A DNA stretch of 64,000 nucleotides from a bacterium (GCA_021846685.1 JAJZWL010000001.1:387-64386); one strand, 5' to 3'; shown: positions 9,050 through 28,621, counted from the first letter of the stretch. Program-made: numbers and translations. The notes: generated by a model not told the origin, from the sequence alone.

Positions 9050-9250
9050 TTAAAAATTCTTTGCTTTTTCTATTACTTTTTCAACATCATCTACAAAATT
9101 AGGCAAAGAGTTATATATGCTTATAGCAACTAATTCATTATAGGCATGGGATGTTAAATTTCTTTGTTTTAAGTATTCAAACCAGGTATCTATATTATCT
9201 ATAAGACCCAATCTCAATGCATCTCTAAATATATTTTTAGAACCATACAC
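9050..9250 (-). CDS. HEPN-domain protein (HI0074-like), possibly N-terminally truncated; starts at GTG.
   Basis: The Rx4-6H motif appears as RNLTSH. It is 66 aa from the first canonical start. Its frame stays open upstream for about 30 more codons, overlapping the MNT gene, with no start codon in that stretch. Confidence 0.5.
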   Translation of the reverse strand: MYGSKNIFRDALRLGLIDNIDTWFEYLKQRNLTSHAYNELVAISIYNSLPNFVDDVEKVIEKAKNF

Positions 9251-9270
9251 ATCTCTAATTCCATTATTTT

Positions 9271-9552
9271 TTAAGATTTCATATATGAATTTCCATGAAA
9301 GCTCGAAAGTAAATTCATTTGTATTGAGGCATCTCTAATTATTGTATTTTCCGGTTCTTCTAATGCATCTTTAAGTTTCACCCATTCTCTAGGAGATACT
9401 TTATTTTTCCCATCAAAGCCTATATCTATATCAGAAAATTTATTTCTATCACTTGTAGCAGAAGAACCAAAGATAAATATTGAGTATTCATCTTTGGCAA
9501 CTATATTAAATATGATATTTCTAATCTCATCTATTATTTCCTTATCTAACAT
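9271..9552 (-). CDS. Minimal nucleotidyltransferase (MNT, HI0073-like) antitoxin-type protein.
   Basis: GSSATSDRNKFSDIDIGF is a GS...DxD polymerase-beta-like nucleotidyltransferase motif. 93 aa. Immediately upstream of the HEPN gene. Confidence 0.6.
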   Translation of the reverse strand: MLDKEIIDEIRNIIFNIVAKDEYSIFIFGSSATSDRNKFSDIDIGFDGKNKVSPREWVKLKDALEEPENTIIRDASIQMNLLSSFHGNSYMKS

Positions 9553-9681: not shown

Positions 9682-10080
9682 TTATTTAAGGATATAGTTT
9701 TTATAACATGACACAGAAGCGCCTACACCATTCCCTTGAACAGTAAAATTAACAACTTCTGGACTACTAGGTTTTTTAAATTTATTTAAATAGTTAATAG
9801 CCTGAGTTCTATAATAAGTACACGGGGTACCAGTTATACTTACAAATAAGCTTTTCCCTATTTCATCTACACTAAATCCAGACAAAGAAACTGGAGAAGA
9901 TTTGGCATAATATTTTTTTACAGAGACATTACTTTTATGGTTAGTCTTTACATTATTATTTTTACTAAAAGAGAGAAACATGCTAAAAAATATTATTGCA
10001 ACAAAGATAATAATAGAAATAATTATATATATAAAATTGTGTTTTACTTTATTTAAATTCATGACGATGTAAAATTGCAA
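9682..10080 (-). CDS. Small N-terminally membrane-anchored extracytoplasmic protein; last gene of the large same-strand block.
   Basis: Single TM helix (IYIIISIIIFVAIIFFSMFL) followed by a soluble domain. Overlaps the upstream gene by 22 nt. Confidence 0.45.
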   Translation of the reverse strand: MQFYIVMNLNKVKHNFIYIIISIIIFVAIIFFSMFLSFSKNNNVKTNHKSNVSVKKYYAKSSPVSLSGFSVDEIGKSLFVSITGTPCTYYRTQAINYLNKFKKPSSPEVVNFTVQGNGVGASVSCYKNYILK

Positions 10081-10856
10081 GTCTGTAAGTATGCTAAGTA
10101 ATAAGCATATACGCTATTTGCATATGCTGTAGCTTGCGGACCTCCTCCATTAGGATCTTCATAATAGATCCCACCACCTCCGTTGTACTTAGTAGAAGCA
10201 TTTAATAATTTTGCTTCTGTCCACTGCTTTATATTTGTAACTCCTACAGAGCTATCAAGATAAATACTTGCCCCAATCATTGAATCAAGAAATATACTCT
10301 GATTAATCCCCAAACTATATATATTGGGGAAATTTGAACTTAGAATGGTTGATACCCCAGAAACGTATCCTGCCCAAGTAGAAGGTTCAAATTGATAAGG
10401 GCCTGGTGATGTTGGATTTGTATCAGGATAATAAATAGATTCTATATTAGAAATTGATCCATGTGCTATCGTTCCATTAAATAAACAATTTGGGCCACTT
10501 TCTTGTCTTTTTTCTGCAGCTAAATATGCAGGAGGGATATTCATTAGTGTCCCTACTGTACTATATACAGATAATAAATTAGTAGACAAATGACAGTACC
10601 CCCCATTTAAACCAGGGGTAAATAAGCTTGAATTGCAAGCTGCACTTGGGGTGAGAGTTCCCGGAGGGATAGTTCCTGCAGATGCATATACTGACCCTCC
10701 CGGATTATTATATTCCGTTAAGGGAACCGCACACCAAGGTTGCACTTCTGATGTTACGGCATAGATATTTTTAGGATGGAGTATGAAAATAGCTACAACT
10801 ATTATAAAAGTTGCGATAAAAATATTTTTTACAGTTTTAATGTCTTTATTTTCCAT
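10059..10856 (-). CDS. Membrane-anchored secreted protein with a possible lytic-transglycosylase (SLT/GH23-like) motif.
   Basis: N-terminal TM helix. QESG...GPYQFEPSTWAGY resembles the SLT E-S ... GLMQ ... TW signature. The call is tentative. Confidence 0.35.
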   Translation of the reverse strand: MENKDIKTVKNIFIATFIIVVAIFILHPKNIYAVTSEVQPWCAVPLTEYNNPGGSVYASAGTIPPGTLTPSAACNSSLFTPGLNGGYCHLSTNLLSVYSTVGTLMNIPPAYLAAEKRQESGPNCLFNGTIAHGSISNIESIYYPDTNPTSPGPYQFEPSTWAGYVSGVSTILSSNFPNIYSLGINQSIFLDSMIGASIYLDSSVGVTNIKQWTEAKLLNASTKYNGGGGIYYEDPNGGGPQATAYANSVYAYYLAYLQTCNFTSS

Positions 10857-11539
10857 TGGTTGTTATATTTTTTAAAAGTTACGCTCATATTCCGAGTATA
10901 CTGGTTTACTCCCCCATTTCCACTATCAAGAGTTAATACGTATTTATATTCTACAATATATTCTTTATTTTGAATATATTTTAATATTTTAATATTTTCT
11001 AAAGAAGGATAAGCTAATAAGAACTTAGTATAATTATTAGCAAGATAGGCTTGCATAGAATTATCATTAGAGTATAAAAATGCAGGAATAGAGTAGAAAT
11101 GCTCAATTAAGTATGCTTTATAGTTAACCAGACTTGATTGATTTTGAGGATAAGGAATATTATATATGTCATAAGAGAGGTAATACCCTAGATATATTGG
11201 GTTATTATAATTTTTCCCTGTATAGTTATTAGGGGATTTCATGAAATATTCTTTATATGAATTTGTATTTTTGTAGTATTTAAAGTATGTAATGCTCCCA
11301 GTAGCTATATTAACATTAGTTGAAAAAATAGTATTGGAAAAACTTTGAGTAGTAAATAATTTCTCACTTGGAATACTCCCAGAGATAGGCCCAATTTTGC
11401 TAAAAGCAATGTTTTTATTTATTGTATTTTGATAGGGTTTTTCCCCAATAAAGAATGACATGATAAAAATCAAAACTATTATTCCTAATATTATAAATCC
11501 ATATTGTTTTAAAAAATTTGTAATTTTAACTAAATCCAT
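10829..11539 (-). CDS. Membrane-anchored hypothetical protein.
   Basis: N-terminal TM helix (GFIILGIIVLIFIMSFFIG) and a Tyr/Asn-rich ectodomain. Confidence 0.4.
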   Translation of the reverse strand: MDLVKITNFLKQYGFIILGIIVLIFIMSFFIGEKPYQNTINKNIAFSKIGPISGSIPSEKLFTTQSFSNTIFSTNVNIATGSITYFKYYKNTNSYKEYFMKSPNNYTGKNYNNPIYLGYYLSYDIYNIPYPQNQSSLVNYKAYLIEHFYSIPAFLYSNDNSMQAYLANNYTKFLLAYPSLENIKILKYIQNKEYIVEYKYVLTLDSGNGGVNQYTRNMSVTFKKYNNQWKIKTLKL

Positions 11540-11550
11540 AATAAAGAATA

Positions 11551-13845
11551 TTAATGTAATTGCCCTCCTGCAGGACGTGCGTAGCCAGCTATACAGTATC
11601 CCGAAGATCCCACAAAACTATATGCTGTTCCTGGATTATAATCATAGCATACAGGAATATTTGTATCAGTAACCACATGAATCCCTTGTTGTGGATCTGA
11701 TGCTTCTATATCTGTATAATTGTTTGTTCCATTCCATGTTTTCACTATTCCTACATGACCTACTCCTGGACCATCTCCCGCTACATAATAATAAATCAGA
11801 TCACCTGGAACTACGTGAGATGCATTATAAAAAATGTGTAAAGAAGAGCTTTGAAATTGAGCAAATGTAGTTCTTCCTATATTATTAAATCCACTAGCCC
11901 TATAAACAGCTTGAGTTAAACCTGAACAATCAATTCCATTTCCTTGCCCACCATAAGGAGTACAACTCACAGGGTTAGTTTCTTGATATTTTCCGCCTAT
12001 AAACTTTTCGGCATCACTAATGATATGGGATGATGAATAATTAGGAGTAGAAGGTTTCGAATTTAGAACCTTTAAACAAGCAGATTGACTAAAACTAGAG
12101 TTTGCACCTCCTGTTCCAGAGCTAGCCCCATTACTTGAAGATCCTTGAGTACATGCAAATGGATTGTAACTTCCTAAGTTAGCAGCTACCACTGGGTCAT
12201 TTGAGGATAAAGCTCCTACATATACTAAATATAACAATAAAGGATCTGGAAACTGTGACCTATCTTTAATATAATACTCCCCTTTTGGCAATGGGGCATT
12301 TGTACCTGAATTACTAGAGGTGGAGGCACTATTTGCAAAATATGGTTGAAATTTATGAATATCTAGATTTTGCTGTATTATTGGAGCATCTCCTAACCAA
12401 GGAAATTCATAATTTGAGTTCACAACAGGAGAACCAGTAGTAGATGATGCTCCTGTAGATAAACATGCGACTGAACTACCACTGGGTGAAACTATACTAG
12501 CAGATACATTTGCATTAATACCGATTCCGTCAAAAAGATTAGCCTCTATTTGTTGAGCACTTTTCCCGTTATATGTCCCATTATTCTGCATTGCAGATAA
12601 TACACCCGAATATAAATAATCAGTATTCGGATTAACATACTCACTCCAAGCTTTAAGATTTGTATGTCCAATAGGAGGCCCTTGATTTAAAGATGCTTCC
12701 ATATACCATTCATCTGCAAGAATCCTATTTAATCCTTGTAAATATAAATTCGGGGAAAAAGTATCTGTGTATGTATTTGGGCAAGATCCTACCTTAGAAT
12801 TACAAGTCTCACTTACATTAATAGAAAAAGAATTACTCTGATTTACAGAAGTAGAACTTGATGTGTCTGTATTATTTTGTTGTTTAGTAGGACAGTAACC
12901 TCCTTTAACACTAGGAGCGCCAATAGCAGAAGAGGAAAAGATATTTGTTATACTAGAAAATATATTACCAAAAAAATTAACTATATCAGTAAGTATACTT
13001 AGCCCTCCATTACTTTGTACATATCCTCCAACAGTATTACTATTAGAGCTAGTTGGGTTATACGGACTTCCATAAGGAGCTAAAAGTTTACAAGTAAGCC
13101 CAGAAGAATTATTTGAAGAAGAAGCACAATTAGATTTTAATGCTTGTGAATTTGAAGTATCAAATTGTTGACTAGGCACACTCCCTACTACGGAATTATT
13201 TGGTAATTGCAGTGGATTATATTGATTATTCAATATAAAAGAACTTCCGAGAGTAAAAAGATCTGCAGCTGTTCCTAATGTAGGCACAGGAAAAAATACA
13301 ACTCCTACTGAAGAGCTTTGAGCAGGAGCCGTAATATTTACAGTCCCAGAAGAATTAGCCGTCTTCAATGAAAATGATCCAGTATTAACATTAAATCCTC
13401 CTAAACCAGAGACTCCTTTTGCAAGGGCACTAAAATTTACATATGGATCTATTCCCATCTTTTCGACCATATAACCAAAAGGTGTGTATGGATTTCCATA
13501 ACCCCCATTAAATGTAGTTCCGTTAGAGTTAATAGAGTTAAAATAATTTAATAACCCAATACCATTAACAGTTACATTAAATGCATAAGTGCCTCTTCCT
13601 TTTAACGTCTCTACCCCATTTGTATCTGAAATAACATGTAAAGGTACAGATACAGAATATTGCGAAGAAGATGTATTGCATGATGTTGCCATGTGGTTAG
13701 GAAAAGAAAAAGGATTTGCCCCTGCATTTCCACAAACATTTAAAGGCTCAGAGGATGCATATAGTTTCCCAGTTCCTAGAAAAAAAACTCCAAGTATCGT
13801 TATAATTAGGAAATATTTAAGATTTTGTTTTGATTTCAGGAACAT
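11551..13845 (-). CDS. Secreted NlpC/P60-family peptidoglycan endopeptidase with a long Ser/Thr/Asn/Gly-rich N-terminal surface region.
   Basis: Signal peptide. The C-terminal domain has the catalytic Cys in GIDCSGLTQAVY and the His in GHVGIV, the spacing and context typical of NlpC/P60. 764 aa. Confidence 0.7.
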   Translation of the reverse strand: MFLKSKQNLKYFLIITILGVFFLGTGKLYASSEPLNVCGNAGANPFSFPNHMATSCNTSSSQYSVSVPLHVISDTNGVETLKGRGTYAFNVTVNGIGLLNYFNSINSNGTTFNGGYGNPYTPFGYMVEKMGIDPYVNFSALAKGVSGLGGFNVNTGSFSLKTANSSGTVNITAPAQSSSVGVVFFPVPTLGTAADLFTLGSSFILNNQYNPLQLPNNSVVGSVPSQQFDTSNSQALKSNCASSSNNSSGLTCKLLAPYGSPYNPTSSNSNTVGGYVQSNGGLSILTDIVNFFGNIFSSITNIFSSSAIGAPSVKGGYCPTKQQNNTDTSSSTSVNQSNSFSINVSETCNSKVGSCPNTYTDTFSPNLYLQGLNRILADEWYMEASLNQGPPIGHTNLKAWSEYVNPNTDYLYSGVLSAMQNNGTYNGKSAQQIEANLFDGIGINANVSASIVSPSGSSVACLSTGASSTTGSPVVNSNYEFPWLGDAPIIQQNLDIHKFQPYFANSASTSSNSGTNAPLPKGEYYIKDRSQFPDPLLLYLVYVGALSSNDPVVAANLGSYNPFACTQGSSSNGASSGTGGANSSFSQSACLKVLNSKPSTPNYSSSHIISDAEKFIGGKYQETNPVSCTPYGGQGNGIDCSGLTQAVYRASGFNNIGRTTFAQFQSSSLHIFYNASHVVPGDLIYYYVAGDGPGVGHVGIVKTWNGTNNYTDIEASDPQQGIHVVTDTNIPVCYDYNPGTAYSFVGSSGYCIAGYARPAGGQLH

Positions 13846-14683
13846 ATATAAATATAGGTAAAGTTGTAGAATTAATTATATCAGCTTTTCCAGAAAGGAT
13901 ATATATAGGAACAATATAGTTATTTTTAAGATCTATAAAATATCCTTGAGATTGAGATGTAAAAGAAATATTATTTATTGCTAAACTTGTATTTATATAT
14001 GAAAAGGACTTACTCAACGTATTTTTATTTAAATTAAAATTTTGAGGATATCCACGCTTCTTATTTATATTAAAAGGATATATAGAGAAACTTACAGGAA
14101 TATTACTGTCTGTAAATATAAATTCATCATAAAACTTTACTCCATCAGGCTTATATATAAAGTTTCCATTTATTGTAGGATAATAATAAAGAACAGTTTT
14201 TCCGTTTAAAAATTTAATGTTTTTGTAAAAATTCACAGTACCTATTTTAAAATCTTGAGAAAGAATAGTATTTGCATATGTATAGATATTTGTTTTTTTA
14301 GCTTTATTTTTGATTGTATAAAAGTAACTACTATTAGAATATATCAAAGAGTTATTTTTTCCTTGCCAAACAAACTGATTATTAGTACTCGATACAGGAG
14401 GAGAGGATATTCCTAAATTTGAAGCTATTTGATATGGTGTTTTATTAAAAGAAAAAGAATAATATGAACTTCTTTCTGAAGGAAGATTTATAGAAAAAGA
14501 CTGGTTTGTATTATTTATATAATCACTTAAAAATGAGATTTTAGGGACAGAAGGCTTAGCAATTTGTGTTTTAACTGACTTAAGAGGGGTATTTTTTTTA
14601 GTAAAATTAGATCTGAAGTTAAAATACAGATATAAAAGTATTAAAAAAATAGAAAATGGTAATAATAATCTTATATATTTCAT
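13817..14683 (-). CDS. Signal-anchored secreted hypothetical protein.
   Basis: N-terminal hydrophobic segment (LLLPFSIFLILLYLYF) and an Asn/Tyr/Ser-rich ectodomain. 5 nt from the giant gene. Confidence 0.4.
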   Translation of the reverse strand: MKYIRLLLPFSIFLILLYLYFNFRSNFTKKNTPLKSVKTQIAKPSVPKISFLSDYINNTNQSFSINLPSERSSYYSFSFNKTPYQIASNLGISSPPVSSTNNQFVWQGKNNSLIYSNSSYFYTIKNKAKKTNIYTYANTILSQDFKIGTVNFYKNIKFLNGKTVLYYYPTINGNFIYKPDGVKFYDEFIFTDSNIPVSFSIYPFNINKKRGYPQNFNLNKNTLSKSFSYINTSLAINNISFTSQSQGYFIDLKNNYIVPIYILSGKADIINSTTLPIFIYVPEIKTKS

Positions 14684-14687
14684 GTTT

Positions 14688-17600
14688 TTATTGTCCTAAA
14701 TATTCTCCTTTATTTAAAATTTCCCCTTTATAAAGGTAAGGATTGGTAGTGTTAATTTTTACAATTCCCGCAGATGTTTTTATAAATACAGTATCTGCTA
14801 AAGAATTTGAGGGATTATTCTGAATATTTACAATTTTTCCAGATGTATATAAAAAGGTTGCAGCATGAGGAGCTCTATGATTAACTACATTAGCAGTATT
14901 ATTATTATTTCCTCCACTAGTAGCTCCAGCCCCCATTAATGACATCATTAATGCCCAGCCTAAAACCATTATAAAAATAGTTCTTAAAAAATCATCAATA
15001 TCAAATTCTCCCTTAAAAAAGAGGGCTATTATTCCTATCAATATATCTAATCCAATAGAGGCAATAGCTGCAGAATGAAAAAACCAACCTGATACAGTTT
15101 GATAGATATTTTTTAAAAAATCACCTATATAATAGAATATTCCATGTTGAAAAAAATATACTAAAAGTGAATTTATGCTCCAAACAGCTGCTCCAACAAC
15201 AACGAATCCTATTCCTCCGGTAATAATCCCTGCTATTCCTGTTATCCCAAAAGCTGCTCCTAATACAAAAGCTCCAATACTTGCCAAAGTGCCCCCTAAT
15301 GCAAATGCAGACATTGTTCCCATAACAAGAGCACTCCAACTTTGAAATGCCGCCATTCCTCCATGTTGAAAAAACAATCCTTCCCAAAAATTAGAAGTTG
15401 TTAATTGAGTATCTAGATATACTAAAAAGGCTGGATCTAAAATTTTTTCACCTACAAACTTAGTAAATCCACCTACTGCCTCAGAGAGTTTACTAGAATC
15501 ACTAATCATTCTATATGTTGCCCAACCGACTCCAGTTCCTACTCCTACAAGAGCACCTCCAATTGGGCCAAAAAGATAACTACCTACAAGATAGCCAAGT
15601 AAACCCGGTGTAAGAGAATCTCCTATGAACTCTGAAGCTTTCCCTATTGTAGCTTTTGATAAAAATGTGTTTAAAGCAGCTGTTTCTGGTTTTATATTCC
15701 CTAATATAGTTAATCCCGTTTTAATTCCTAAATATGCTCCTGTTACTGCAATAAACCCAACAGGAGTAGTAATTCCAAAAATAACTGATAAAACAGCTCC
15801 TCCTATCATTGCAGAATTTAAACTTTTAAATAAGTCTGCAGTAGTAAGATTTAAAGTTTCAGACAAATTTACTTGTGCAGTTACTGCTATTTTCCCTAAA
15901 GAACCCATTCCTGATTGGACTAAAGATTCTCTTATAAGATTTGGTAAATCAATTCCAACAAGACTAGAGTTCAAAAATTCTGAATTGAAGATTGCTTCAA
16001 ATCTTGCAGGATCAGTAAGCAAGAAACTTCTTAAGTTTAAATTTGCTTCAGTTTCTGCATCTAATCCGACTAGATTAGGGAAAATAGTACCTACAGGAAG
16101 ATTTGTATTTGCTAAAAGTTTAAAAAAATCTGATCCTGCAAAACTTGAACTCAGATCAAAACCTTTGAAAATAGAATCATTAAAGCTTTTAATAAAATCA
16201 GAATAACTGGAAGATAAATTTAACCCCCTGTCACTTAAAAATTGACGGAAATCTGTTGTATTTTTAAGACTATCTACTGTAAGCGGATTACTTAAATCTC
16301 CTATACTGCCACCTTTGTCTTCAACAAACTTTATTAACCCTGCTCTCAAAGATTCTGGATTTACAAAACTGGATGCTTCTGGATTTTTTAATACATCAGA
16401 CATTCTATAATAAGAATTCATTTCTTTCGAAACAGCTTTTACTCCAAATTTTGACAAATCTCTTGAATTTACTAAAGATTTATCTATTGCTTTCATATCT
16501 TCCTCAGTAAATCCTGCAATCGATTTTATATCTTCTCTGTAAATTTCCTTTAAAAGATTCTCCATATCTCCTCTTGCATACAGATCAGAAAGAGTTGTAT
16601 CTCTGGATAAATTATCAACAAGAGTGGTATCTAAAAATCGATTTCCTTGGGAGAGAGATTTAAGAAAATCTTCAAATTTCATTTTTTCAGGAATAGTTCC
16701 TAAGTTGGCGGTAGCATCAGTTAAATCCTTACTTCGATATAAAACATCTCTAATATCTGCCCTTGCCCCAAATTTGTCTAAAGCATCTGCCAAATCTTTA
16801 CTCTCCCCAAATTCTTTGAGATAATATGCTTTATCTAGTGCAATTCTATCTAAACTTTCTCTATAAAAAGCACTTGGATCTACACTTCCATAAGTCCTTA
16901 GTAATTCTTGTCTCTCTAATAAGGTATCTGCTCTAATATCTCTAAATTCTTTTGAAATATAATTCAAATCCCAATGATCAATCAAATTAGGGTCATGTAA
17001 ATACTCATACAAACCTTTTTCTCCATAAAATTTATCTAGCATATCTGAGCTATATCCGCTCTCTGCCAATTTATCATAAAGTTGATATCTATCAAGCCCA
17101 GATAAAATTTTAGGATCAAAAACTCCTGGTTCAAATTTTAAATCCACTATGTCGGGGTGAACTATAAACCTAGCCCCTCTTTTTCCAACGATAGTAATTA
17201 TTATACTAGGAACACCTACTGCAATTGCTCCTACTACAGCCCCAATAGGACCAAAAACTGAACCAATCAAAGCCCCCCCTCCTATAAATCCAATTCCAAC
17301 GTGAGAAATATCATATGCAGAAACACCAGAAATATCATGCAAAACAGAATCTTCAAATAAAGAACTTTTAAAGAAATCAGCAATAGAACCACTTACTAGT
17401 CCCACCCCCATAAAACCTAAGAATAAAGGATTCCCCCCAAAAAGAATAAATCCTAAGATCCCAACAATAGCACTTGGCCCTCCAATCTCGAAAAGATATT
17501 CAGATTTAAATAAAAAAGAAGACCTTACAAGATCTGATGCCTCTGTATAGTCTCCAAGAACTTTCCCAACAAAAGATAAATCTACCGCTCTAAAAACAGA

Positions 17601-19367
17601 AGTTACTGCAAATATACCAAGTCCTGTAAACATTAAAGGGATACCACTAATTCCAAAGATTGCAGCAACTATTGTCCCTATAACGGCACTTGTTATTCCA
17701 AAAGTCCCAGTTTTAACTATTAACTCAGGAAGTGATAAAGCCCTGTCTGTCATTGTAGTAGCTATTCTCTGAACCATATTTACTACTAAAGGATTTTGTT
17801 CAGAAAAATATGTGGTAAAGTCTAAAAAGAATTTAGATCCAAAATAAACAGAACCTACAATTACCCCTCCTACAGGAGACGACATAGCTATTCCTGCTAA
17901 CAATCCTGGAATTAAAGCCTCGAATCCATCTTTCAACATCATTTTTGCCACTCCAAAACCAAACCTTACTCCATCAAGAGAAGTTAATAATCTTCCAGCT
18001 AAACCTTCCCCATCAACATTCCTTAATAAGGAATATGTTATTCCTTGTTCATCTCCAACATACTTTGCTACTTCAAATAGAGCTTTATCTACAATACCTC
18101 TTAAAAAAGCAAATACAAAAGCAGGAGCTAAAACTATAAAATCTAAAAATTTTAAAAGATTTTTTCTCTTTCTTTTTGAAGGTCTTTTGGTCGCTTCTAT
18201 ATTTTTTATTCCCCTGAGTCTTTTCGACAATTTCGTATTATTTATTGTGTTTGAAATAAATTGCCTGCGCGTAAATTTACCTGTATTTTGATTTGGAGAT
18301 AATTTATTTAGTTTTTTACCAAAAGCATCTTCATAATTATCTGAAAATCTTTTTTCTCCAGAAAAATTATTACTTAAATCTGCCCATAAAAATCCTGATT
18401 TAAATTTTGAGCGTAAATTTTTTCTTTCAGGATAAATCAATTTTTGAACTTTTCTGTATCCTGTAAGTTTTGCAGAATCAGAAGACCTAACCATTCCTGA
18501 TTTCTTCGAATTAGCTAATGCAGTAAGTAATCCATAATAAGAACGTGAATTCTCTTCAACAAGACGCCTGACAAGAGGATTGTCTCCTTTGGCAAATTCT
18601 GCAGAAATCTTTGCATACTCAGAACTTTTTGAGCTTACAGAAGAAAATACTAGAGTTCTTTCCCAGTTATAGACAACCTTCCAAGAAGATGGTACAGAAA
18701 AAATTTTAGATTTTTTCCTCTTTCTGTGAGCATTGTTATCCATAACAAATTCCCACAAATTGTAATATTTAAAATTTTTATTACGAAGAGGAGCAACACT
18801 TATATCTACACCTTTATGATCTTTTAACAGCTGAACTTTCCCATCAACAGTTATTGGTTTCAAGTTTTCATCAAGAGCATACATATATCCTTTTGTATAT
18901 AGTGTTTGTAATTGTTTTTCTATTGCGGCTATATATATTGGGGCTCTATTTTTTAATGCTCTTTGTAATCCTTCTACTCCTGTTACATATTTTCTTTTTG
19001 AACCACTAACAGATTGTGGGTAAAAAGTTTTTGATATAATTGGGGCTAAAGATTGAGCCAAGAGGTATGCTTCTCTTTCTTTAAATTTTCTTCTATAACT
19101 TGCACTTAAATGTTTTGAAAAATCTCTATTAAGATTCTCTGCTATTGTAAGTTGTATGAATCTTTTAACTTGAGACTCTTTAACAATGGGAGAAAGTTTT
19201 TCTATTAATTTTCTAGGAACAACCCTTGTATCCCTATACTCCTGAACATATTTTGAAAGATTTATTCTATTTAAAGTAAGATCCCTTTTAAGATCAATTA
19301 CTGTGTAATATTGATCTGTGTATAAAGAGGTTATTAAATTTGCTAAGTCCGATAAATCATATTTCAT
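14688..19367 (-). CDS. Giant (1559 aa) polytopic glycine-rich membrane protein of unknown function.
   Basis: Uninterrupted ORF. It has a basic K/R-rich N-terminal region of about 400 aa and two bundles of Gly-rich TM helices (about residues 410-730 and 1090-1500). An acidic Asp/Leu-rich soluble domain of about 350 aa separates the two bundles. No ATPase motifs. Confidence 0.6.
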   Translation of the reverse strand: MKYDLSDLANLITSLYTDQYYTVIDLKRDLTLNRINLSKYVQEYRDTRVVPRKLIEKLSPIVKESQVKRFIQLTIAENLNRDFSKHLSASYRRKFKEREAYLLAQSLAPIISKTFYPQSVSGSKRKYVTGVEGLQRALKNRAPIYIAAIEKQLQTLYTKGYMYALDENLKPITVDGKVQLLKDHKGVDISVAPLRNKNFKYYNLWEFVMDNNAHRKRKKSKIFSVPSSWKVVYNWERTLVFSSVSSKSSEYAKISAEFAKGDNPLVRRLVEENSRSYYGLLTALANSKKSGMVRSSDSAKLTGYRKVQKLIYPERKNLRSKFKSGFLWADLSNNFSGEKRFSDNYEDAFGKKLNKLSPNQNTGKFTRRQFISNTINNTKLSKRLRGIKNIEATKRPSKRKRKNLLKFLDFIVLAPAFVFAFLRGIVDKALFEVAKYVGDEQGITYSLLRNVDGEGLAGRLLTSLDGVRFGFGVAKMMLKDGFEALIPGLLAGIAMSSPVGGVIVGSVYFGSKFFLDFTTYFSEQNPLVVNMVQRIATTMTDRALSLPELIVKTGTFGITSAVIGTIVAAIFGISGIPLMFTGLGIFAVTSVFRAVDLSFVGKVLGDYTEASDLVRSSFLFKSEYLFEIGGPSAIVGILGFILFGGNPLFLGFMGVGLVSGSIADFFKSSLFEDSVLHDISGVSAYDISHVGIGFIGGGALIGSVFGPIGAVVGAIAVGVPSIIITIVGKRGARFIVHPDIVDLKFEPGVFDPKILSGLDRYQLYDKLAESGYSSDMLDKFYGEKGLYEYLHDPNLIDHWDLNYISKEFRDIRADTLLERQELLRTYGSVDPSAFYRESLDRIALDKAYYLKEFGESKDLADALDKFGARADIRDVLYRSKDLTDATANLGTIPEKMKFEDFLKSLSQGNRFLDTTLVDNLSRDTTLSDLYARGDMENLLKEIYREDIKSIAGFTEEDMKAIDKSLVNSRDLSKFGVKAVSKEMNSYYRMSDVLKNPEASSFVNPESLRAGLIKFVEDKGGSIGDLSNPLTVDSLKNTTDFRQFLSDRGLNLSSSYSDFIKSFNDSIFKGFDLSSSFAGSDFFKLLANTNLPVGTIFPNLVGLDAETEANLNLRSFLLTDPARFEAIFNSEFLNSSLVGIDLPNLIRESLVQSGMGSLGKIAVTAQVNLSETLNLTTADLFKSLNSAMIGGAVLSVIFGITTPVGFIAVTGAYLGIKTGLTILGNIKPETAALNTFLSKATIGKASEFIGDSLTPGLLGYLVGSYLFGPIGGALVGVGTGVGWATYRMISDSSKLSEAVGGFTKFVGEKILDPAFLVYLDTQLTTSNFWEGLFFQHGGMAAFQSWSALVMGTMSAFALGGTLASIGAFVLGAAFGITGIAGIITGGIGFVVVGAAVWSINSLLVYFFQHGIFYYIGDFLKNIYQTVSGWFFHSAAIASIGLDILIGIIALFFKGEFDIDDFLRTIFIMVLGWALMMSLMGAGATSGGNNNNTANVVNHRAPHAATFLYTSGKIVNIQNNPSNSLADTVFIKTSAGIVKINTTNPYLYKGEILNKGEYLGQ

Positions 19368-19376
19368 ATTTTATAT

Positions 19377-20036
19377 TCAATCATAATTATAATAAAAAAT
19401 ATTCTCAAAATAAGTCCTATTTGCATAAAAATTATTAATATCTGTTTCTGAGAAAACCCCATTTGAAAATATTTGATACAGAGGATATAAAATGCTATTT
19501 TCTTCTACATCACTAAAAAAAGATAAATCTCCTCCAAGTTCTGTATATTTTCTTATTTTAGAGAGAATAATACAATTCTGTATATACTTAAACCCTCCTA
19601 ATTCTTTATATTTTTCTATAAATCTATAATTAGCATCCATTGTTATTTTTAATCTTAAATCTAGATTATCAAAATTCTCTATTGATATTTTAGCTTCATT
19701 TTCTATTGAAACAGGATTATTTCCTTCATAAATATTATTGTCAATCATAATGGAGTACCCTTCTTTAGAGAAGAATAGATTTAGAAAATCTTTTTCAAAG
19801 AATTCATATAAGAAAGATAGATTTCCCTTATTTTGTGTTTGTATATATGTATATATTGCCCTATATAGATAATCATATAAAGGTGCTTCTAACTCATCTA
19901 TCGAAGAGGTCATATCTTCTAATTTTCGAAGTAGAAAATCTTCTATTTCAGGATATTCTTCTAACCCTTTTATAAAATCTACAAAAAGATAAAAGTTATA
20001 TCCAAATTTATTGTTATAGTAATCTCTAAGTAACAT
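19377..20036 (-). CDS. Acidic soluble hypothetical protein, probably translationally coupled to the upstream polytopic-protein gene.
   Basis: The ORF-track start (20078) overlaps the upstream gene by 43 nt. The internal Met (MLLRDYY...) gives a 1-nt stop/start overlap. No TM segments. Confidence 0.4.
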   Translation of the reverse strand: MLLRDYYNNKFGYNFYLFVDFIKGLEEYPEIEDFLLRKLEDMTSSIDELEAPLYDYLYRAIYTYIQTQNKGNLSFLYEFFEKDFLNLFFSKEGYSIMIDNNIYEGNNPVSIENEAKISIENFDNLDLRLKITMDANYRFIEKYKELGGFKYIQNCIILSKIRKYTELGGDLSFFSDVEENSILYPLYQIFSNGVFSETDINNFYANRTYFENIFYYNYD

Positions 20037-21586
20037 TATGCTCCTGAACTTACTGCTTTTCTTGCAGAACCTGCCCATTTCCTAACGCTTCCATATGGGC
20101 CTTGGAATCTATTCTTCAATTCTGAAGAGTAAGAAGAGAAGTCGAACCCTAATGCCTTTGTAGCATCCGCTATAACCTTAGGAATAAGAACGAAGACTGC
20201 AATAGCTAATAAAAGAGAAATTGTTTGCGAATTACTATTTGTTAACAATTGACCTAAACCTAACAAGGGTAAAGAATTTCCATTTGTAAAACCTGGAGCA
20301 TGTTGCAAAAAATATATAAGATTAAACATTGTATATATTGTCGTATATATCAAAACTGCCTTAATCATTCCTTTAAAGAATGTCCCTATAAATTTAGTCT
20401 GCCCTGGAACTGATCCTGCTAGAAATAGAAATGGAGCAACTACTGGTAAGAATAAAAACATTAGATATCCTTTTAAAAGTTGTATTACTATCTTAAATGC
20501 AGTGAAAAGAAGTATTACTGCAATTATAAAAACAATAATCCCAGATATAACCACATTCTGCCCTGCAAATTTCCCTAAATCCACAATAAGTGTTTCTAGT
20601 ATCCCTTTAGAATGAACCTGAGAAAGAGTTATGCTCGCCCCATTCAAGAATTGCTTTGTTGTAGTAAATGATACATCTCCATAAACATTAAATATATAAT
20701 TATAAGAGCTAAAAGCACTATGAAATGAACCCGAGGTTAAGTTTCCATTTAAAGCTGAGAATGCAAAATATATAAATCCCAAAAGTATATTCATTAAGTC
20801 AACCATAAATCCTCCTATTGCATAACTAAAAGTTATAAGAATTACTGCCGCTACAATATTAGGAAGTGCACTTAAAAAAGTAATCGGGACTTGTCCTCCT
20901 ACCTTTCCACCTATAATAATCATGATTCCTGTAAATAAAATCACCAAAATTAAAAGTAAAAATGAAATATTTCTAGCTACTGCCCACAAAGGATATACTG
21001 GAGACAAGAAAGAAAATCCATAGACAGGGCCACTATAATTAGTAGCTGCGAATGTAGAATTTGAATTTGTTGCTTTATGGTAAAGATATGCGAAATAACT
21101 TACTCCACTTACTGGAGGATTAGTATATAAATCAGCCATAACAGAACTTGTATCCCCTAATGCTCCATACCCTCCAGTATATTGAAAATTTCTAGATGTT
21201 GCGCCTGGAGAGTTATATTGCGTATAATTTCCAATTATAGCAATAGATCCACTTTGAAAAATAGCAGGGGTAAATCCACAAGATTCCCAAACAGACAATC
21301 CAGATCCTCCAGATGGAGCACAGGTATTAAGAGTTGAAGAACTTCCTGCAAAAACTTGCCCTGCAGCCACAAAGCCAAAGACAAGAAACGCTATTAATAT
21401 TGTTTTTATACTTAAAAAGCTGGTTTTTCTAAAGTTAGTTTCCGCAGATCGTTCTACTATATCTATTGTGTCTCTTTTGTAAATTCCTAATTTTTTGGAT
21501 ATAATTTTTGACTTCAAGAAGAATATTTTATATTTTAATTTTTTTTCTTGAATTCTAGATTTAATAGAGTGTGTTAATTTATTCAT
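20036..21586 (-). CDS. Polytopic membrane protein with VirB6/TrbL-like topology: signal-anchor, extracytoplasmic domain of about 110 aa, then at least six TM helices.
   Basis: Hydrophobicity pattern read from the translation. The extracytoplasmic region is Ser/Gly/Thr-rich with two Cys. The similarity to VirB6/TrbL is topological only. Confidence 0.4.
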   Translation of the reverse strand: MNKLTHSIKSRIQEKKLKYKIFFLKSKIISKKLGIYKRDTIDIVERSAETNFRKTSFLSIKTILIAFLVFGFVAAGQVFAGSSSTLNTCAPSGGSGLSVWESCGFTPAIFQSGSIAIIGNYTQYNSPGATSRNFQYTGGYGALGDTSSVMADLYTNPPVSGVSYFAYLYHKATNSNSTFAATNYSGPVYGFSFLSPVYPLWAVARNISFLLLILVILFTGIMIIIGGKVGGQVPITFLSALPNIVAAVILITFSYAIGGFMVDLMNILLGFIYFAFSALNGNLTSGSFHSAFSSYNYIFNVYGDVSFTTTKQFLNGASITLSQVHSKGILETLIVDLGKFAGQNVVISGIIVFIIAVILLFTAFKIVIQLLKGYLMFLFLPVVAPFLFLAGSVPGQTKFIGTFFKGMIKAVLIYTTIYTMFNLIYFLQHAPGFTNGNSLPLLGLGQLLTNSNSQTISLLLAIAVFVLIPKVIADATKALGFDFSSYSSELKNRFQGPYGSVRKWAGSARKAVSSGA

Positions 21587-21618: not shown

Positions 21619-22290
21619 TTACAATAGCAAATCTGATCTATTTTTTCTAGTTTTTTTAAGACTTTCTTTTTTTCTATATTCTTCAACCTTTTTGTGATCT
21701 CCAGAAATAAGTACTTCAGGAACTTTTTCCTCCATAAAAATAGCAGGTCTCGTATATTGAGGATATTCAAGCAAATTGGGATCAGAAAAAGACTCTTCTG
21801 ATAAAGATTCATTATTCCCTAGAACGCCTGGAATAAGACGTGATACGGAATCTAAAACACACAAAGAGGCATAGTCTCCAGAAGAGAGAATAAAGTCTCC
21901 TATACTTAATTCTATATCTACAAATTTTAAAATTCTCTCATCAAATCCTTCAAATTTAGGACAGATTAATGTTATATTTTCTTTTTTTGAAAAATTTATT
22001 GTTTTTTGTTGATTAAATTTCTTTCCAGAAGCTGAAAATATTATTGAGTAAGTATCTTGAGTTTCTTTTATCTTTTTCAAAGCGTTATATAACACATCTA
22101 CTCTAAGAATCATTCCTGCTCCTCCTCCGTAAGGAGAATCATCTATTGACCCGCGTTTATCTATTGCACTATCTCTAAGAGAGTGTATTTCTATTTGAAG
22201 TTTTTTTTGAGTTATTGCCCTTTGTATTATTCCAAATTTAAATATATTTGAATAAAATTCAGGATACAGAGTAATAATATTAACTTTCAT
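21619..22290 (-). CDS. trmD: tRNA (guanine37-N1)-methyltransferase.
   Basis: MKVNIITLYPEF N-terminus and the YGGGAGM SAM-binding block. 223 aa. Confidence 0.85.
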   Translation of the reverse strand: MKVNIITLYPEFYSNIFKFGIIQRAITQKKLQIEIHSLRDSAIDKRGSIDDSPYGGGAGMILRVDVLYNALKKIKETQDTYSIIFSASGKKFNQQKTINFSKKENITLICPKFEGFDERILKFVDIELSIGDFILSSGDYASLCVLDSVSRLIPGVLGNNESLSEESFSDPNLLEYPQYTRPAIFMEEKVPEVLISGDHKKVEEYRKKESLKKTRKNRSDLLL

Positions 22291-22296
22291 TTATTT

Positions 22297-22620
22297 TTAT
22301 AAAAGCTCTTCTATTTGTTTTACAAAATCAGCTTTAGGTCTTACTCCTATGAGTCTTGCAACTTCTTTTCCTTCTTTAAAGAAGACAACATTAGGAATGC
22401 TCATAACTTGATATTCTGATGCCCTGTCTGAACTTGCATCTACATCTAATTTACATACCTTCACTTTATCTTTATATTCTTCAGAAACTTCTTCTATTAC
22501 AGGAGAGAGCATATGACAAGGCATACACCAATCAGCCCAGAAGTCTACAATAACAATTTTTTCTTTTTCATCTAGAACTTCTTTTTGAAATGTTTGAGAA
22601 TCTAAATCTACGTGAGACAT
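22297..22620 (-). CDS. trxA: Thioredoxin.
   Basis: WCMPC active site (CxxC). 107 aa with a thioredoxin-fold layout. Confidence 0.85.
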   Translation of the reverse strand: MSHVDLDSQTFQKEVLDEKEKIVIVDFWADWCMPCHMLSPVIEEVSEEYKDKVKVCKLDVDASSDRASEYQVMSIPNVVFFKEGKEVARLIGVRPKADFVKQIEELL

Positions 22621-22717: not shown

Positions 22718-23299
22718 TTAACTTCCTCCGTTATATTCGTATACTAATGGGTATCCTGCTGTGTTTGTAGTAGCTCCTTTAGGTAAAGCAGCTCCAGTTC
22801 CAGTAGAGAAAACCAATATTTTATTTCCTGCTATATTTTCCCCTACATAATAGTTTCCTGCTGGAAGAGATCCCAGATCAGCACTAATTGCAGTATATAA
22901 AGCAGAACCTGTTGTTAACTGTTCACAATCTCCTGCGGCAGTTCCTGTTGCTATAGCAACGGATGCATTAGGAATAGTTCCTGTTCCTGTAACACAATAA
23001 GGTGTCCCAGTAGATGAGCCAGTAACACTAAATCCATATGCAGTAGATGTAACAATTACACTTCCTGAAGAAGGTGTAGGAATCCCAGATGGGTATTGTC
23101 CTTTATTATCAACTGTATATGTCTGAATAGCTTTATATATTTGTTGTATATTACTTTCAGTAGTTGTATTGTTTGCATCTGCAATTCTTCCAATTGGATC
23201 CAAGGCAATAAATACTACTAAAGCTAAAATAGCAATAATAACAATAACTATCAAAATTTCAATCAGGGTGAAACCCTTTTTATTTGTAATTTTTTTCAT
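22718..23299 (-). CDS. Type IV pilin (class III signal peptide), likely major pilin.
   Basis: The leader MKKITNKKG followed by FTLIEILIVIVI gives Gly at -1 and Glu at +5. A strong SD (AAGGGAGGTGA) lies 8 nt upstream; SD sequences are rare elsewhere in the window. Followed by an intrinsic terminator. Confidence 0.75.
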   Translation of the reverse strand: MKKITNKKGFTLIEILIVIVIIAILALVVFIALDPIGRIADANNTTTESNIQQIYKAIQTYTVDNKGQYPSGIPTPSSGSVIVTSTAYGFSVTGSSTGTPYCVTGTGTIPNASVAIATGTAAGDCEQLTTGSALYTAISADLGSLPAGNYYVGENIAGNKILVFSTGTGAALPKGATTNTAGYPLVYEYNGGS

Positions 23300-23364: not shown

Positions 23365-23895
23365 TTAAAAATTGTAAATTTGGTAAGCAACTGCAAATCC
23401 CTTCTTATCAATATTTGACCCTTGTCCTAAGTCTGTACAAAAAACAACAACTTTTGTTCCATAGATATTTTTTGCCACATAAAAATCCCCTTTTGGCAAT
23501 CCTCCTTTAATGTATGGAGATATTTGAGAGGCAAAAGGAGTATTAGTTACAACCCCTAAACATGTATTGTCATATGCTCCTGCCTGTATACAATTTGGAA
23601 TTCCAGGAGAATTTCCCATAACATCAAATCCTGCCCCTACTCCAGAAGCTTGAGTGTTATTTATTACTAAAGGAGAAGATATAGATGGAATAGAAGAAGG
23701 AATCTGCCCCTTATTTGCAATTGAATATTCTGCGATTGCATTTACTATTGTTTCAACAGCTTTTTCTTTTTTAATATTATATGAATCTGAAACTGCCTTT
23801 ACTGGATTAATCTCAAAAAAAACAATAAGGGAGAATAAAGCTATTGTTACTAAGAATAAAAGTATTTCTGCTATCCCAAAATTCTTTTTTTCCAT
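23365..23895 (-). CDS. Pilin-like paralogue with a non-canonical N-terminus.
   Basis: The mature part is clearly homologous to the neighbouring pilin (IQQIYKAIQTY... aligns with VETIVNAIAEY...). The N-terminus MEKKNFG-IAEILLF places the Glu at +3 rather than +5. Confidence 0.55.
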   Translation of the reverse strand: MEKKNFGIAEILLFLVTIALFSLIVFFEINPVKAVSDSYNIKKEKAVETIVNAIAEYSIANKGQIPSSIPSISSPLVINNTQASGVGAGFDVMGNSPGIPNCIQAGAYDNTCLGVVTNTPFASQISPYIKGGLPKGDFYVAKNIYGTKVVVFCTDLGQGSNIDKKGFAVAYQIYNF

Positions 23896-25661: not shown

Positions 25662-26798
25662 ATGGATATTAATATTACAAGAGAAAATTTTATAGAACTT
25701 TTAAATTTTAATATTAAGACACAAAATACAAAAATTAGTATTCCTATACTTTCGAATGTTTGTATAGAAGCTAAAGACAGTAAATTAATATTAAAAAGTA
25801 CTAATCTTGAAAATAGTATTATATCTGTTTCTGGAGTAGAAATTATAAAAGAAGGTACTACAACTGTAAATTTGAAAAATATATATGATTTTGTATCTAA
25901 TCTTAAGTCAGAAATTATAAATATTAAATTAGATAATAATATATTAACCATATCTGACGAAAATAATCATATTTCATTAAATACAATATCTTCAGAAGAA
26001 TTCCCTGATATACCTGATTCTAAAGGTAATTTAATATTAAAAATACCTGCTTTTGATTTCTCAACAGCTTTAGATAAAGTTACTTTTGCAACTTCTACAG
26101 ATATTTCTAAATTAATTTTATCTGGAGTTTTATTTGAATTTGATGATAAAAACTTAAAATTGGTTGGTATTAATGGATTTAGATTTTCAAGTGTTGAAGT
26201 AGATAATATAATTAAAGAAACTAAAGAAACTTTACCTAATATTATTGTACCTTCTTATTCTCTTGATAGTGTGTCTAAAATAATAAAAGAATTAGATATG
26301 GATAATGATTCTTATGTCTATGTATATATATTTGGAAAAAACAATCAAATCATATTTGAAATTGAAAACGTAACTTTTGTAGTAAGGTTAATAGAAGGTA
26401 AGTATCCTGATTATTTAAAAATTTTTCCTACTGATTATGAATCTGAATTTACTCTTTTAACTCAGGATCTAAAAGATGTAGTAAAATTATCTAGTATATT
26501 CAGATTTAAGGATATTTCTAGAATATATTTAGATATTGATCCTAAAGAAGGTATTATTAAATTTCAATCTTCATTAAAGGAAGTTGGAGAAAGTAATTCT
26601 ATAATAAAAACTAAAATAAAAGGAAATAAAGTTATTGCAAGTTTTAATTCTAAATACATTATGGATTTTTTAAATCATATAGATTCTGAATATATTAATA
26701 TATATATTAATCCATCTTCTTTAAAAAAAGTATCAAAATTTCAAGAAAAAGATAATAGTAAATTTACATACTTAGTTATGCCTTTAATGGAAAGGTAA
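25662..26798 (+). CDS. dnaN: DNA polymerase III beta subunit (sliding clamp).
   Basis: 378 aa. The N-terminus (MDINITRENFIELLNFNIKTQNTKISIPILSNVCIEAKDSKLIL) follows the DnaN pattern, consistent with a three-domain length, and the gene is in the canonical position after dnaA. Confidence 0.9.
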   Translation: MDINITRENFIELLNFNIKTQNTKISIPILSNVCIEAKDSKLILKSTNLENSIISVSGVEIIKEGTTTVNLKNIYDFVSNLKSEIINIKLDNNILTISDENNHISLNTISSEEFPDIPDSKGNLILKIPAFDFSTALDKVTFATSTDISKLILSGVLFEFDDKNLKLVGINGFRFSSVEVDNIIKETKETLPNIIVPSYSLDSVSKIIKELDMDNDSYVYVYIFGKNNQIIFEIENVTFVVRLIEGKYPDYLKIFPTDYESEFTLLTQDLKDVVKLSSIFRFKDISRIYLDIDPKEGIIKFQSSLKEVGESNSIIKTKIKGNKVIASFNSKYIMDFLNHIDSEYINIYINPSSLKKVSKFQEKDNSKFTYLVMPLMER

Positions 26799-26890: not shown

Positions 26891-28024
26891 TTATTTCCTA
26901 GAAAATAATGTATCAGCAAAATTGTTGCTCGTAATCACAGTAAACGTATTTTTAGGGTACAGTACATTAAACTCATTAGGCAACTTGGCTTGTTTTTCCC
27001 TCCATTTAAACTCAAAAGCACTCATGTTACCATTATACTCTTCAATAAGATCAATTTCTTTTTGGCTATAACTACGCCAGAAAAAATAGTTAGGTTTATA
27101 TTCTCCATATTCGTTTGATTTTATTCTCTCTGTCACACAAAAGTTTTCCCATAATGCACCTACATCATTACGTAGATTCAATTCATTAAAATTTCTAATA
27201 AGACTGTTGCGCAAACCAAGGTCTATGAAATATATTTTGCGTAGTTTTCCTACTTCACTGCGCGGGTTTCTTTTTAAAGCTGGAAGACGATAAATAACGA
27301 AAGTCTGTTCCAGTAGAAAGATATATCTCTCAATAGTTTTGATATCTACTTCTAACAGGTTTGACAATTCCCTAAGACTAACCTCATTTCCTAATTGTAA
27401 GGCTAATGCTTGGAGAAGCTTGGTTAATAAAGGAGCCTTCTTGAGGTTTTCATATTTCAATATGTCTTTGAATAAATAATTGGAACTTAGCTCTGTAAGT
27501 GCATCCACAGCTTCACTGTCTGACATATTCCATATCATTGGATATGAACCAAATAGAAGCATCCTCTTCATGGTCTGATCTGAGATTAATCTATCACCTT
27601 GAGTAATTTCTATAAATGAGAGAGGTTCTAAATGAAAAGTCCAAGATCTTCCAGTCAATGGCTCACTAATTTTATTAGCAAGGTCAAAACTAGAGCTACC
27701 AGTCGCAATAATTTGCATTTCAGGATAATTTTCCACAAGAAGTTTTAAAGTAATCCCAATATTTTCTACTCTTTGGGCTTCATCAATTACCACAAGTTCG
27801 TAATCCCCTATAAAACTTTTTAATTCTGCAGCACTTCTATTTGTTAGATTAGCCACTACACTTGGTTCATCTCCATTTAAATAACGTCCTTTTTTCGAAG
27901 ATGTATTTAAAATTTTTTTGCTAAGAATAGTCTTTCCAACCTGGCGTGCCCCATACAAAATGATAACTCTCCCTTTGTATAGATGCTTTTCAATATTATC
28001 TTGTAGCATTCTATGAAATATCAT
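26891..28024 (-). CDS. AAA-family ATPase with a DUF4143-type C-terminal domain.
   Basis: Walker A GARQVGKT and Walker B VVIDEAQ. The architecture matches the AAA_14 plus DUF4143 family common in CPR and archaea. Confidence 0.7.
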   Translation of the reverse strand: MIFHRMLQDNIEKHLYKGRVIILYGARQVGKTILSKKILNTSSKKGRYLNGDEPSVVANLTNRSAAELKSFIGDYELVVIDEAQRVENIGITLKLLVENYPEMQIIATGSSSFDLANKISEPLTGRSWTFHLEPLSFIEITQGDRLISDQTMKRMLLFGSYPMIWNMSDSEAVDALTELSSNYLFKDILKYENLKKAPLLTKLLQALALQLGNEVSLRELSNLLEVDIKTIERYIFLLEQTFVIYRLPALKRNPRSEVGKLRKIYFIDLGLRNSLIRNFNELNLRNDVGALWENFCVTERIKSNEYGEYKPNYFFWRSYSQKEIDLIEEYNGNMSAFEFKWREKQAKLPNEFNVLYPKNTFTVITSNNFADTLFSRK

Positions 28025-28100
28025 AACTTAATTATATATGAATTGGTAGATACAAGTCAATCAATTATATATGAATTAGTAGACTTGTGTAAATAACTAT

Positions 28101-28495: not shown

Positions 28496-28621
28496 AAAGT
28501 AATAATAGAATATATTTAAAGAAAATTATTAGAGGATTTGAAAATTAAGTAAAACTACCTATATTGATAGTAAATATAAAAAATGACCTATATAACATTA
28601 AAACTATATTCCTTATATTCT
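28496..28621 (+). repeat. 126-bp direct repeat, left copy, flanking the IS.
   Basis: Read by eye as identical to 30239-30364 over the whole 126 bp. Confidence 0.85.

Follow-up and report, generated by a model that had tools for sequence, protein, structure and literature searches.

What does an eight-gene block of mostly membrane-anchored proteins, one of them a 1559-amino-acid (aa) orphan, do beside the replication origin of a patescibacterium? The block runs on the minus strand from 21586 to 9682 of a 64,000-nucleotide (nt) stretch (GCA_021846685.1, JAJZWL010000001.1:387-64386; hereafter the window), a low-GC (~28%) chromosomal segment from the metagenome-assembled genome of an ultrasmall member of the Patescibacteria; it spans the replication-origin region. 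An earlier note, made from the sequence alone, had proposed a novel apparatus that lacks an ATPase and matches no described system. That proposal fails, as the same contig encodes PrgI-like, TraC-like and VirB4 proteins of a type IV secretion system (T4SS), and chromosomal, dispersed T4SSs near dnaA have already been described (PMC12102498). No new class of secretion apparatus is established. We favor, with moderate confidence, the reading that the block forms the envelope part (membrane and cell wall) of a chromosomal Patescibacteria T4SS, in a variant particular to this lineage. Its seven co-operonic genes 2–8 are a clade-specific addition, and the unit is fused to trxA-trmD.

Gene 1 and the VirB4 module

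Gene 1 opens the block and encodes a polytopic protein with an N-terminal extracytoplasmic domain, as the earlier note had described it. A hydropathy scan, by which the topology of all block proteins was assigned, places a signal-like helix at residues 54–83, an exposed domain of ~110 aa at ~84–196 and then at least five hydrophobic transmembrane (TM) helices. Its homologues comprise 13 close (49–72% identity) and about 20 distant proteins, all of them patescibacterial and lacking any Pfam domain. A scan of a genome collection recovered 314 loci encoding the family, mostly in Microgenomates-type genomes. The distant homologues stand in T4SS loci, in which two to five tandem T4SS_pilin (PF18895) genes are followed, sometimes after a gene for a ~790-aa secreted protein, by the homologue itself; PrgI-like, TraC-like and VirB4 genes often lie within 10 kb. 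T4SS genes thus surround the wider family, whereas for the window copy they are found only at 42 kb.

The gene 1 model matches VirB6 (TrwI) and DotA best, and VirB6 proteins head the fold searches made with two programs. Polytopic topology with at least five TM helices is thereby joined to a VirB6-like helical fold, as far as the model can be relied upon. Taken together, the T4SS context of the distant homologues and the predicted fold support the assignment of gene 1 as a VirB6-type subunit, outside the Pfam family of that name. The VirB6-like character suggested in the earlier note is therefore upheld by genomic context and fold, but not by Pfam. In the clade of the window, gene 1 is 20–25% identical to the aligned canonical members of its family. 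No second gene 1 paralogue from the clade assemblies occurs among the 80 loci kept, and none lies near VirB4.

The absence of an ATPase, also claimed in the earlier note, is true of the block, in which Pfam, NCBIfam and a sweep with T4SS components detected none, but not of the genome. The sweep used components from canonical loci (tblastn and hidden Markov models) and detected neither VirB4 nor a TraC-like protein nor a VirB2-like pilin within the window; it did find a PrgI-like (VirB3-like) open reading frame (ORF) that runs off its end (E = 7e-11). The flank beyond is represented by loci L091 and L092 of the same organism, of which L091 matches the window exactly over the 1000 nt compared (63001–64000). 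There the PrgI-like gene is completed and followed by TraC-like and VirB4 genes (L091, 5036–10000, minus strand; Table 1). VirB4 retains intact Walker A (FAKSGAGKSY) and Walker B (IFIIDEAW) motifs and carries a low-complexity C-terminal tail of ~250 aa. A sortase gene follows it; an LPXTG-type motif is nevertheless absent from the block proteins. The module stands back-to-back with a type IV pilus cluster (~50–63 kb) containing PilM/N and PilB, identified by Pfam, and PilC and pilins, identified from gene calls.

The block and the PrgI-like gene are separated by ~42 kb and ~40 genes on the same contig, and the block thus falls outside the range of about 20 coding sequences from virB4 that has served as the criterion for clustering (PMC12102498). 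Such dispersal is common in this group, because VirB4 lies within 10 kb of the gene 1 homologue in only 20 of 76 loci outside the clade (20–26 of 76 for PrgI, TraC-like and VirB4 genes); split T4SS modules are normal here. A metagenome scan with the VirB4 of this genome gave only VirB4s of other lineages, ~60% identical, with no close relative among them. PrgI/TraC-like/VirB4 modules often stand alone, too: 80 metagenome loci (encoding the ~60%-identical VirB4) have neither a gene 1 homologue nor a pilin within 10 kb. Between the passive structure and the ATPase supplied in trans that the earlier note had offered as options, the evidence favors the latter.

A VirB2-like pilin array (mean 4.5 genes) lies within 5 kb upstream of the gene 1 homologue and on the same strand in 54 of the 62 non-clade loci with sufficient flank, as opposed to none of 13 clade loci. 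With a T4SS_pilin profile built on 244 sequences, neither the window nor L091 gave a match at E up to 1, nor did 14 clade loci at E up to 1e-5. Where other lineages have VirB2-like arrays, two type-IV-pilus-type pilin genes are present instead. They are upstream and on the same strand, as the earlier note had stated, but do not directly adjoin the block, since trxA and trmD lie between.

Wall hydrolases and clade-restricted proteins

The same eight-gene order and the same flanks recur in eight other species-level genomes (L011–L018). These are the eight closest of the 314 loci, from different species representatives, and all of them carry the block, with amino-acid identity from 50–70% for gene 1 down to ~30% for gene 3. 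The block genes are therefore real genes. In the relative with a 59%-identical gene 1, the order (517-222-1458-280-762-233-242-133 aa) is identical to that of the window, flanked by trxA, trmD and two pilin genes with dnaA beyond; adjacency to trxA-trmD is kept in all clade loci. Outside the clade, genes 2–8 have no counterpart in 156 other T4SS loci, and profile–profile comparison (hhalign) with the PrgI-like, TraC-like, VirB4, pilin, M23 and large-protein families of canonical loci yielded nothing credible.

Gene 5 provides the sole credible match when all eight proteins are searched against Pfam, NCBIfam and PHROGs. Its C-terminal NlpC/P60 domain (PF00877, residues 631–701) scores 29.6 bits against a gathering cut-off of 23, as the earlier note had anticipated, and the catalytic residues are present (Cys in GIDCSG, His in GHVGIV). 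The N-terminal ~600 aa are conserved and have no recognised fold. Among seven orthologues this region is kept while the C-terminal domain varies, being NlpC/P60 in five and M23-like in two (L011, 17664–19943; L017, 17448–19895).

Gene 7 had been proposed to be lytic-transglycosylase-like, which fold and motif bear out and the family profile does not. The window copy has no Pfam match at E up to 10, and SLT_2 (PF13406), the nearest Pfam family of the lytic transglycosylase/goose-lysozyme-like superfamily, matches two of five orthologues at E = 0.011, well short of any curated threshold. The protein possesses an E119-S120 pair and a G152-P-x-x-F-x-P-x-T-W161 motif. Q-E-S is invariant in five orthologues otherwise 22–47% identical, and both E119 and G-P-x-x-F-x-P-x-T-W are invariant among seven closer homologues. 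Combined with a lytic-transglycosylase-like fold in the model, this conserved catalytic Glu(-Ser) motif supports assignment at the level of fold and motif. Gene 7 comes in two sequence subtypes, whose split differs from the NlpC/P60–M23 split of gene 5. Because the peptidase domain is exchanged and gene 7 has subtypes among close relatives, we speculate that the hydrolases may be adapted to a target that varies, possibly a host wall.

Gene 3, the giant, agrees in the hydropathy scan with the two Gly-rich TM bundles attributed to it earlier. A basic N-terminal domain (1–400) is followed by TM bundle 1 (~403–729), an acidic helical and soluble middle of ~450 aa (730–1185), TM bundle 2 (~1185–1483) and a conserved stretch of the last 75 aa. 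An exhaustive profile search of 1.84 billion representatives returned ten proteins only, all members of the gene 3 family with E < 1e-30; a word-based search returned five. No Pfam, NCBIfam, PHROG or PDB-sequence match was obtained, and profile comparison together with the PDB-sequence and exhaustive searches detected no homology to gene 1 or any VirB6. The protein diverges rapidly, showing 37% identity in a comparison in which gene 1 retains 59%, and is best conserved at residues 1–240, 440–720 and 1400–1559. In L017 it is split into ORFs of 908 aa (12174–14900) and 560 aa (14931–16613), either because the gene is truly divided at the junction of the soluble middle with TM bundle 2 or through a frameshift or assembly error.

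Two candidate relationships of gene 3 were rejected. A single hhalign match (66% probability) linked TM bundle 2 to a TM+M23 family encoded after VirB4; we take it as compositional, because it joins Gly/Ala-rich membrane segments with low per-column confidence. A truncated M23 domain at the C-terminus (NPYLYKGExxxKGEYLG) had as its only support a Pfam hit of one orthologue at E = 0.13 and an 11-residue hhalign match.

In other lineages, a giant protein of a different kind follows the VirB6-like gene on the opposite strand (for example, L004, 11564–15520, and L005, 2114–6634, both minus). These proteins are 640–1500 aa long, acidic, hypervariable, unrelated to gene 3 and annotated in no family; the two largest, in L004 and L005, have a single C-terminal hydrophobic helix, and those of L003 and L006 have none.

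For the remaining products, no relatives were detected outside the clade, and no profile match was informative. Gene 2 is acidic (36 D+E versus 25 K+R) and lacks hydrophobic segments, and its start overlaps the gene 1 stop, in line with the earlier description of a coupled, cytoplasmic-type protein; its nine orthologues share an invariant L-Y-D-Y motif, and neither Pfam, NCBIfam nor profile–profile searches assign it to a family. Genes 4–8 each have one N-terminal hydrophobic helix, as expected from the signal anchors noted before. Genes 4, 6 and 8 are bitopic, the topology expected for a VirB8-like protein; the Pfam scan gave gene 6 only a weak NTF2-like match (MecA_N, E = 0.08), and the profiles of genes 4 and 6 recovered nothing VirB8- or NTF2-like from PDB sequences and Pfam. 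Nor did the profiles of genes 4, 6 and 7 give any meaningful match to PDB sequences. The gene 6 slot is occupied by an unrelated 132-aa ORF in L011 and L017, the same two loci in which gene 5 bears the M23-like domain.

Layout and surroundings of the block

An ORF listing reproduces the eight-gene block as delimited earlier, with ORFs of 516, 233, 1559, 288, 764, 236, 265 and 132 aa for genes 1–8 and junctions that are overlaps of 1–43 nt or gaps of 4–11 nt. Start codons were taken from public gene calls of the same contig (GCA_027331785.1, DAHWLQ010000001.1). They move the gene 2 start to 20036, leaving a 1-nt overlap with the gene 1 stop, and the gene 8 start to an ATG at 10062, where an ATGA overlap with the gene 7 stop is seen in the sequence. 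The tight spacing reported before is thus confirmed, but its largest overlap, 43 nt, came from an over-extended gene 2 start, and the gene 8 start had been over-extended too.

The unit had been thought to continue from trxA-trmD, and the signals fit. Because a promoter-like site (11 of 12 consensus positions) precedes trxA and a terminator-like hairpin lies 3′ of the upstream pilin gene, both being consensus matches only, trxA-trmD and the block are probably co-transcribed from a start at trxA. The GC content of the block resembles that of its surroundings, which include dnaA and dnaN (both identified by Pfam). No integrase, capsid or terminase gene was found near the block by Pfam on window ORFs, and neither a coupling protein (VirD4/TcpA) nor a relaxase was found in a Pfam scan of 19 of the larger window ORFs outside the block or in the L091 gene calls.

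Table 1. Positions of the block genes, the VirB4 module and neighbouring features, in window coordinates (window-equivalent beyond 64000)
Feature	Position	Strand	Remarks
Gene 1, polytopic, VirB6-like candidate	20036..21586	-	516 aa
Gene 2, acidic soluble, clade-restricted orphan	19377..20036	-	219 aa (233 aa with upstream start)
Gene 3, giant polytopic	14688..19367	-	1559 aa
Gene 4, N-terminally anchored exoprotein, clade-restricted	13817..14683	-	288 aa
Gene 5, secreted or anchored, C-terminal NlpC/P60	11551..13845	-	764 aa
Gene 6, N-terminally anchored exoprotein, variable slot	10829..11539	-	236 aa
Gene 7, N-terminally anchored, lytic-transglycosylase- or lysozyme-like	10059..10856	-	265 aa
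Gene 8, small N-terminally anchored protein	9682..10062	-	126 aa (132 aa from TTG 10080)
trmD	21619-22290	-	directly upstream of gene 1; Pfam families in gene calls
trxA	22297-22620	-	directly upstream of trmD; Pfam families in gene calls
Promoter-like site	22661-22632		upstream of trxA
Terminator-like hairpin	22699-22683		3′ of upstream pilin gene
Pilin gene, N_methyl motif, type-IV-pilus-type	22718-23299	-	upstream of trxA
Pilin or pilin-like gene, type-IV-pilus-type	23365-23895	-	upstream of trxA
dnaA	24017-25351
dnaN	25662-26798
PrgI-like (VirB3-like), first 64 codons	63808..64000	+	continues past window
PrgI-like, complete	63808-65451	+	547 aa, profile E 7e-66
TraC-like	65456-66148	+	230 aa, profile E 4e-73
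VirB4	66157-68772	+	871 aa, profile E 9e-288; Pfam AAA_10, P-loop_TraG on record
93-aa and 66-aa ORFs	9050-9552	-	directly 3′ of block
193-aa ORF	15625-16206	+	antisense within gene 3
Variable region	26891-30210		just 3′ of dnaN
DDE_Tnp_1 transposase gene	28717-30210
684-aa ORF	32631-34685	-	between hrcA and GT4 glycosyltransferase gene
477-aa ORF	52252-53685	-	within type IV pilus cluster
AAA_14/DUF4143 gene	58368-59792		within pilus cluster

Several neighbouring features deserve mention. The 93-aa ORF directly 3′ of the block encodes a nucleotidyltransferase domain (Polbeta/NTP_transf_2) and, with its 66-aa companion, could be the remnant of a small MNT-type toxin–antitoxin pair. The 193-aa ORF antisense to gene 3 very likely arises from the codon bias of that gene and is not itself a gene. 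Within the variable region behind dnaN, the transposase gene is present in the window and in L007 and absent from the sister assembly L009, and L008 carries a second AAA_14/DUF4143 ATPase gene at this site instead, which points to a recent insertion sequence polymorphism beside the origin. Another AAA_14/DUF4143 gene lies in the pilus cluster. Neither the 684-aa nor the 477-aa ORF has a Pfam match; a 662-aa gene occupies the place of the former in L001.

Competing readings and significance

If the block is the envelope module of a Patescibacteria T4SS, it would be expressed from the trxA promoter near oriC, and gene 1 would supply a channel or platform subunit of VirB6 type. The peptidoglycan would be opened by genes 5 and 7, the NlpC/P60 endopeptidase acting on the peptide and the lytic-transglycosylase-like glycosidase on the glycan, while gene 3, together with gene 2 (cytoplasmic) and genes 4, 6 and 8 (bitopic), may serve as a scaffold peculiar to the clade. 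The PrgI-like/TraC-like/VirB4 module, 42 kb away, would provide energy and membrane docking in trans: VirB4, docked by the VirB3-like protein, would energise the membrane channel based on gene 1. Judging from Saccharibacteria, growth on a host probably depends on the system. Cooperation between the two modules, and the roles given here to genes 2, 3, 4, 6 and 8, are what we infer from these observations.

A chromosomal T4SS of this kind has precedents. Patescibacteria T4SSs are derived from the MPF_FATA type, lie near dnaA and have dispersed components (Quinonero-Coronel et al. 2025, PMC12102498). In the same survey VirB8 homologues were nearly undetectable across the phylum, VirB1 was often not near virB4, most systems had no relaxase, and the gene for the type IV coupling protein was usually distant. 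The window shares with them a monoderm-type gene set without outer-membrane parts, proximity to dnaA/dnaN, a row of VirB3-like (PrgI), TraC-like (in the position of the TrsD homologues of PMC12102498) and VirB4 genes, a polytopic VirB6-type protein, hydrolases that need not adjoin virB4, and no relaxase seen. It differs from them in lacking a VirB2-like array beside the VirB6-like gene or in the 74 kb examined, in the ~42 kb between that gene and virB4, in the addition of genes 2–8 with the 1559-aa orphan, which have no counterpart in the other loci, and in the fusion to trxA-trmD, with both modules abutting type-IV-pilus genes.

Gram-positive conjugative T4SSs (pCF10 Prg, pIP501 Tra, ICEBs1 Con) combine VirB6-like PrgH/ConG with bifunctional hydrolases (PrgK, TraG, CwlT) and VirB8-like PrgL/TraM. 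The kinship to such systems seen in the earlier note is supported: a polytopic VirB6-like protein, several small N-terminally anchored bitopic proteins, VirB3-like and VirB4 proteins, and wall hydrolase activities of lytic-transglycosylase and NlpC/P60/CHAP type are common to both. Unlike them, the window has its hydrolase activities on two proteins, and in some relatives an M23-like domain takes the place of NlpC/P60; neither a relaxase nor a coupling protein nor an adhesin is seen in it, the system is not on a mobile element, none of the proteins belongs by sequence to the PrgH or TrbL families, and the VirB8-like resemblance is one of topology only. Gene 3 also recalls the extended VirB6 proteins described in Rickettsiales (PMC12857230, PMC7648143) in its many hydrophobic helices, large central or terminal hydrophilic domains, very large size and position beside a shorter VirB6-like gene, but this likeness is architectural, with no detectable homology.

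Several observations weigh against assigning the block to a T4SS. Neither gene 1 nor 23 of its relatives matches VirB6/TrbL (PF04610) in Pfam or NCBIfam at E up to 1. Both AlphaFold2 models are of low confidence (predicted local distance difference test, 58 and 53), and the Foldseek TM-scores of gene 1 to TrwI are low (0.33–0.40 on target length). The VirB2-like pilins that accompany gene 1 elsewhere were not found in the 74 kb examined, and a repeated hhalign comparison of genes 2–8 with the 45 most recurrent families of the 156 loci gave nothing credible. Co-occurrence of block and VirB4 was checked in one organism only, coupling to a VirB4 ~40 genes away is our deduction, and a housekeeping envelope function would account for co-transcription with trxA-trmD as well. 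The chief alternative, corresponding to the passive option of the earlier note, is an autonomous envelope- or wall-remodelling operon of T4SS descent. Here a relic VirB6, gene 1, would have been recruited along with two peptidoglycan hydrolases and new membrane proteins for a VirB4-independent task, such as division or wall turnover in the symbiont, or a static structure for host attachment or contact. We consider this unlikely, though a serious contender. The lack of an ATPase in the block, the distance to VirB4, the restriction of genes 2–8 to the clade, the missing pilin array and the probable link to housekeeping genes all agree with it. Moreover, gene 1 is 20–25% identical to canonical members while VirB4 of this genome keeps ~60% to metagenome VirB4s, suggesting that gene 1 has changed its constraints. 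Yet split modules are the rule in the wider family, and the genome keeps an intact VirB3-like/TraC-like/VirB4 module, and the 74 kb seen contain no VirB6-like gene besides gene 1; it would be unusual for a VirB4 to lack such a partner. A peptidase paired with a glycosidase is, in addition, the hallmark of the VirB1-type hydrolases of Gram-positive T4SSs.

A remnant of a prophage tail or integrative element, with gene 3 as a tape-measure-like protein followed by tail-associated lysins, is very improbable and largely refuted. The NlpC/P60 domain of gene 5 does match a PHROG "minor tail protein" (E = 1e-10), gene 3 has a very weak NCBIfam match to a gene transfer agent tape-measure protein (E = 0.31), and its Gly-rich hydrophobic segments resemble such proteins. 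Beyond this lysin domain there is no phage structural match, as genes 1–4 and 6 hit no PHROG and genes 7–8 give only noise (E > 0.02). The lack of integrase, capsid and terminase genes nearby and the GC content speak against it as well; every product is a membrane or signal-bearing protein, and the block holds the same place beside trxA-trmD/dnaA in eight species diverged to 30–70% identity.

The envelope-module reading can be taken further. One may imagine that the conjugative-type (VirB2) pilus was lost in this clade and the T4SS rebuilt around the orphan giant and split, swappable hydrolases, cooperating with the type IV pilus, genes of which abut both T4SS modules. Such a system would be a pilus-less, type-IV-pilus-assisted, contact-dependent translocon, its hydrolases (NlpC/P60 or M23-like, plus the two glycosidase subtypes) tuned to the peptidoglycan of the host and not of the symbiont. 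We regard this extension as doubtful.

The T4SSs of Patescibacteria are the first shown to be essential for the growth of their bearer, as found in the saccharibacterium Southlakia epibionticum (PMC12857230), and their build is barely known. VirB6 homologues have been reported as "scarce" in Microgenomatia, "suggesting extreme sequence divergence" (PMC12102498); for this reason the gene 1 family, with 314 loci and an almost constant position right behind VirB2-like arrays, matters as a concrete candidate for the "missing" Microgenomatia VirB6. Together with this divergent candidate, the field gains a remodelled envelope module that is specific to a clade and includes an orphan giant. The clade shows the plasticity of the machine: the pilin array is missing, seven of the co-operonic genes are new and a peptidase domain has been exchanged between close relatives.

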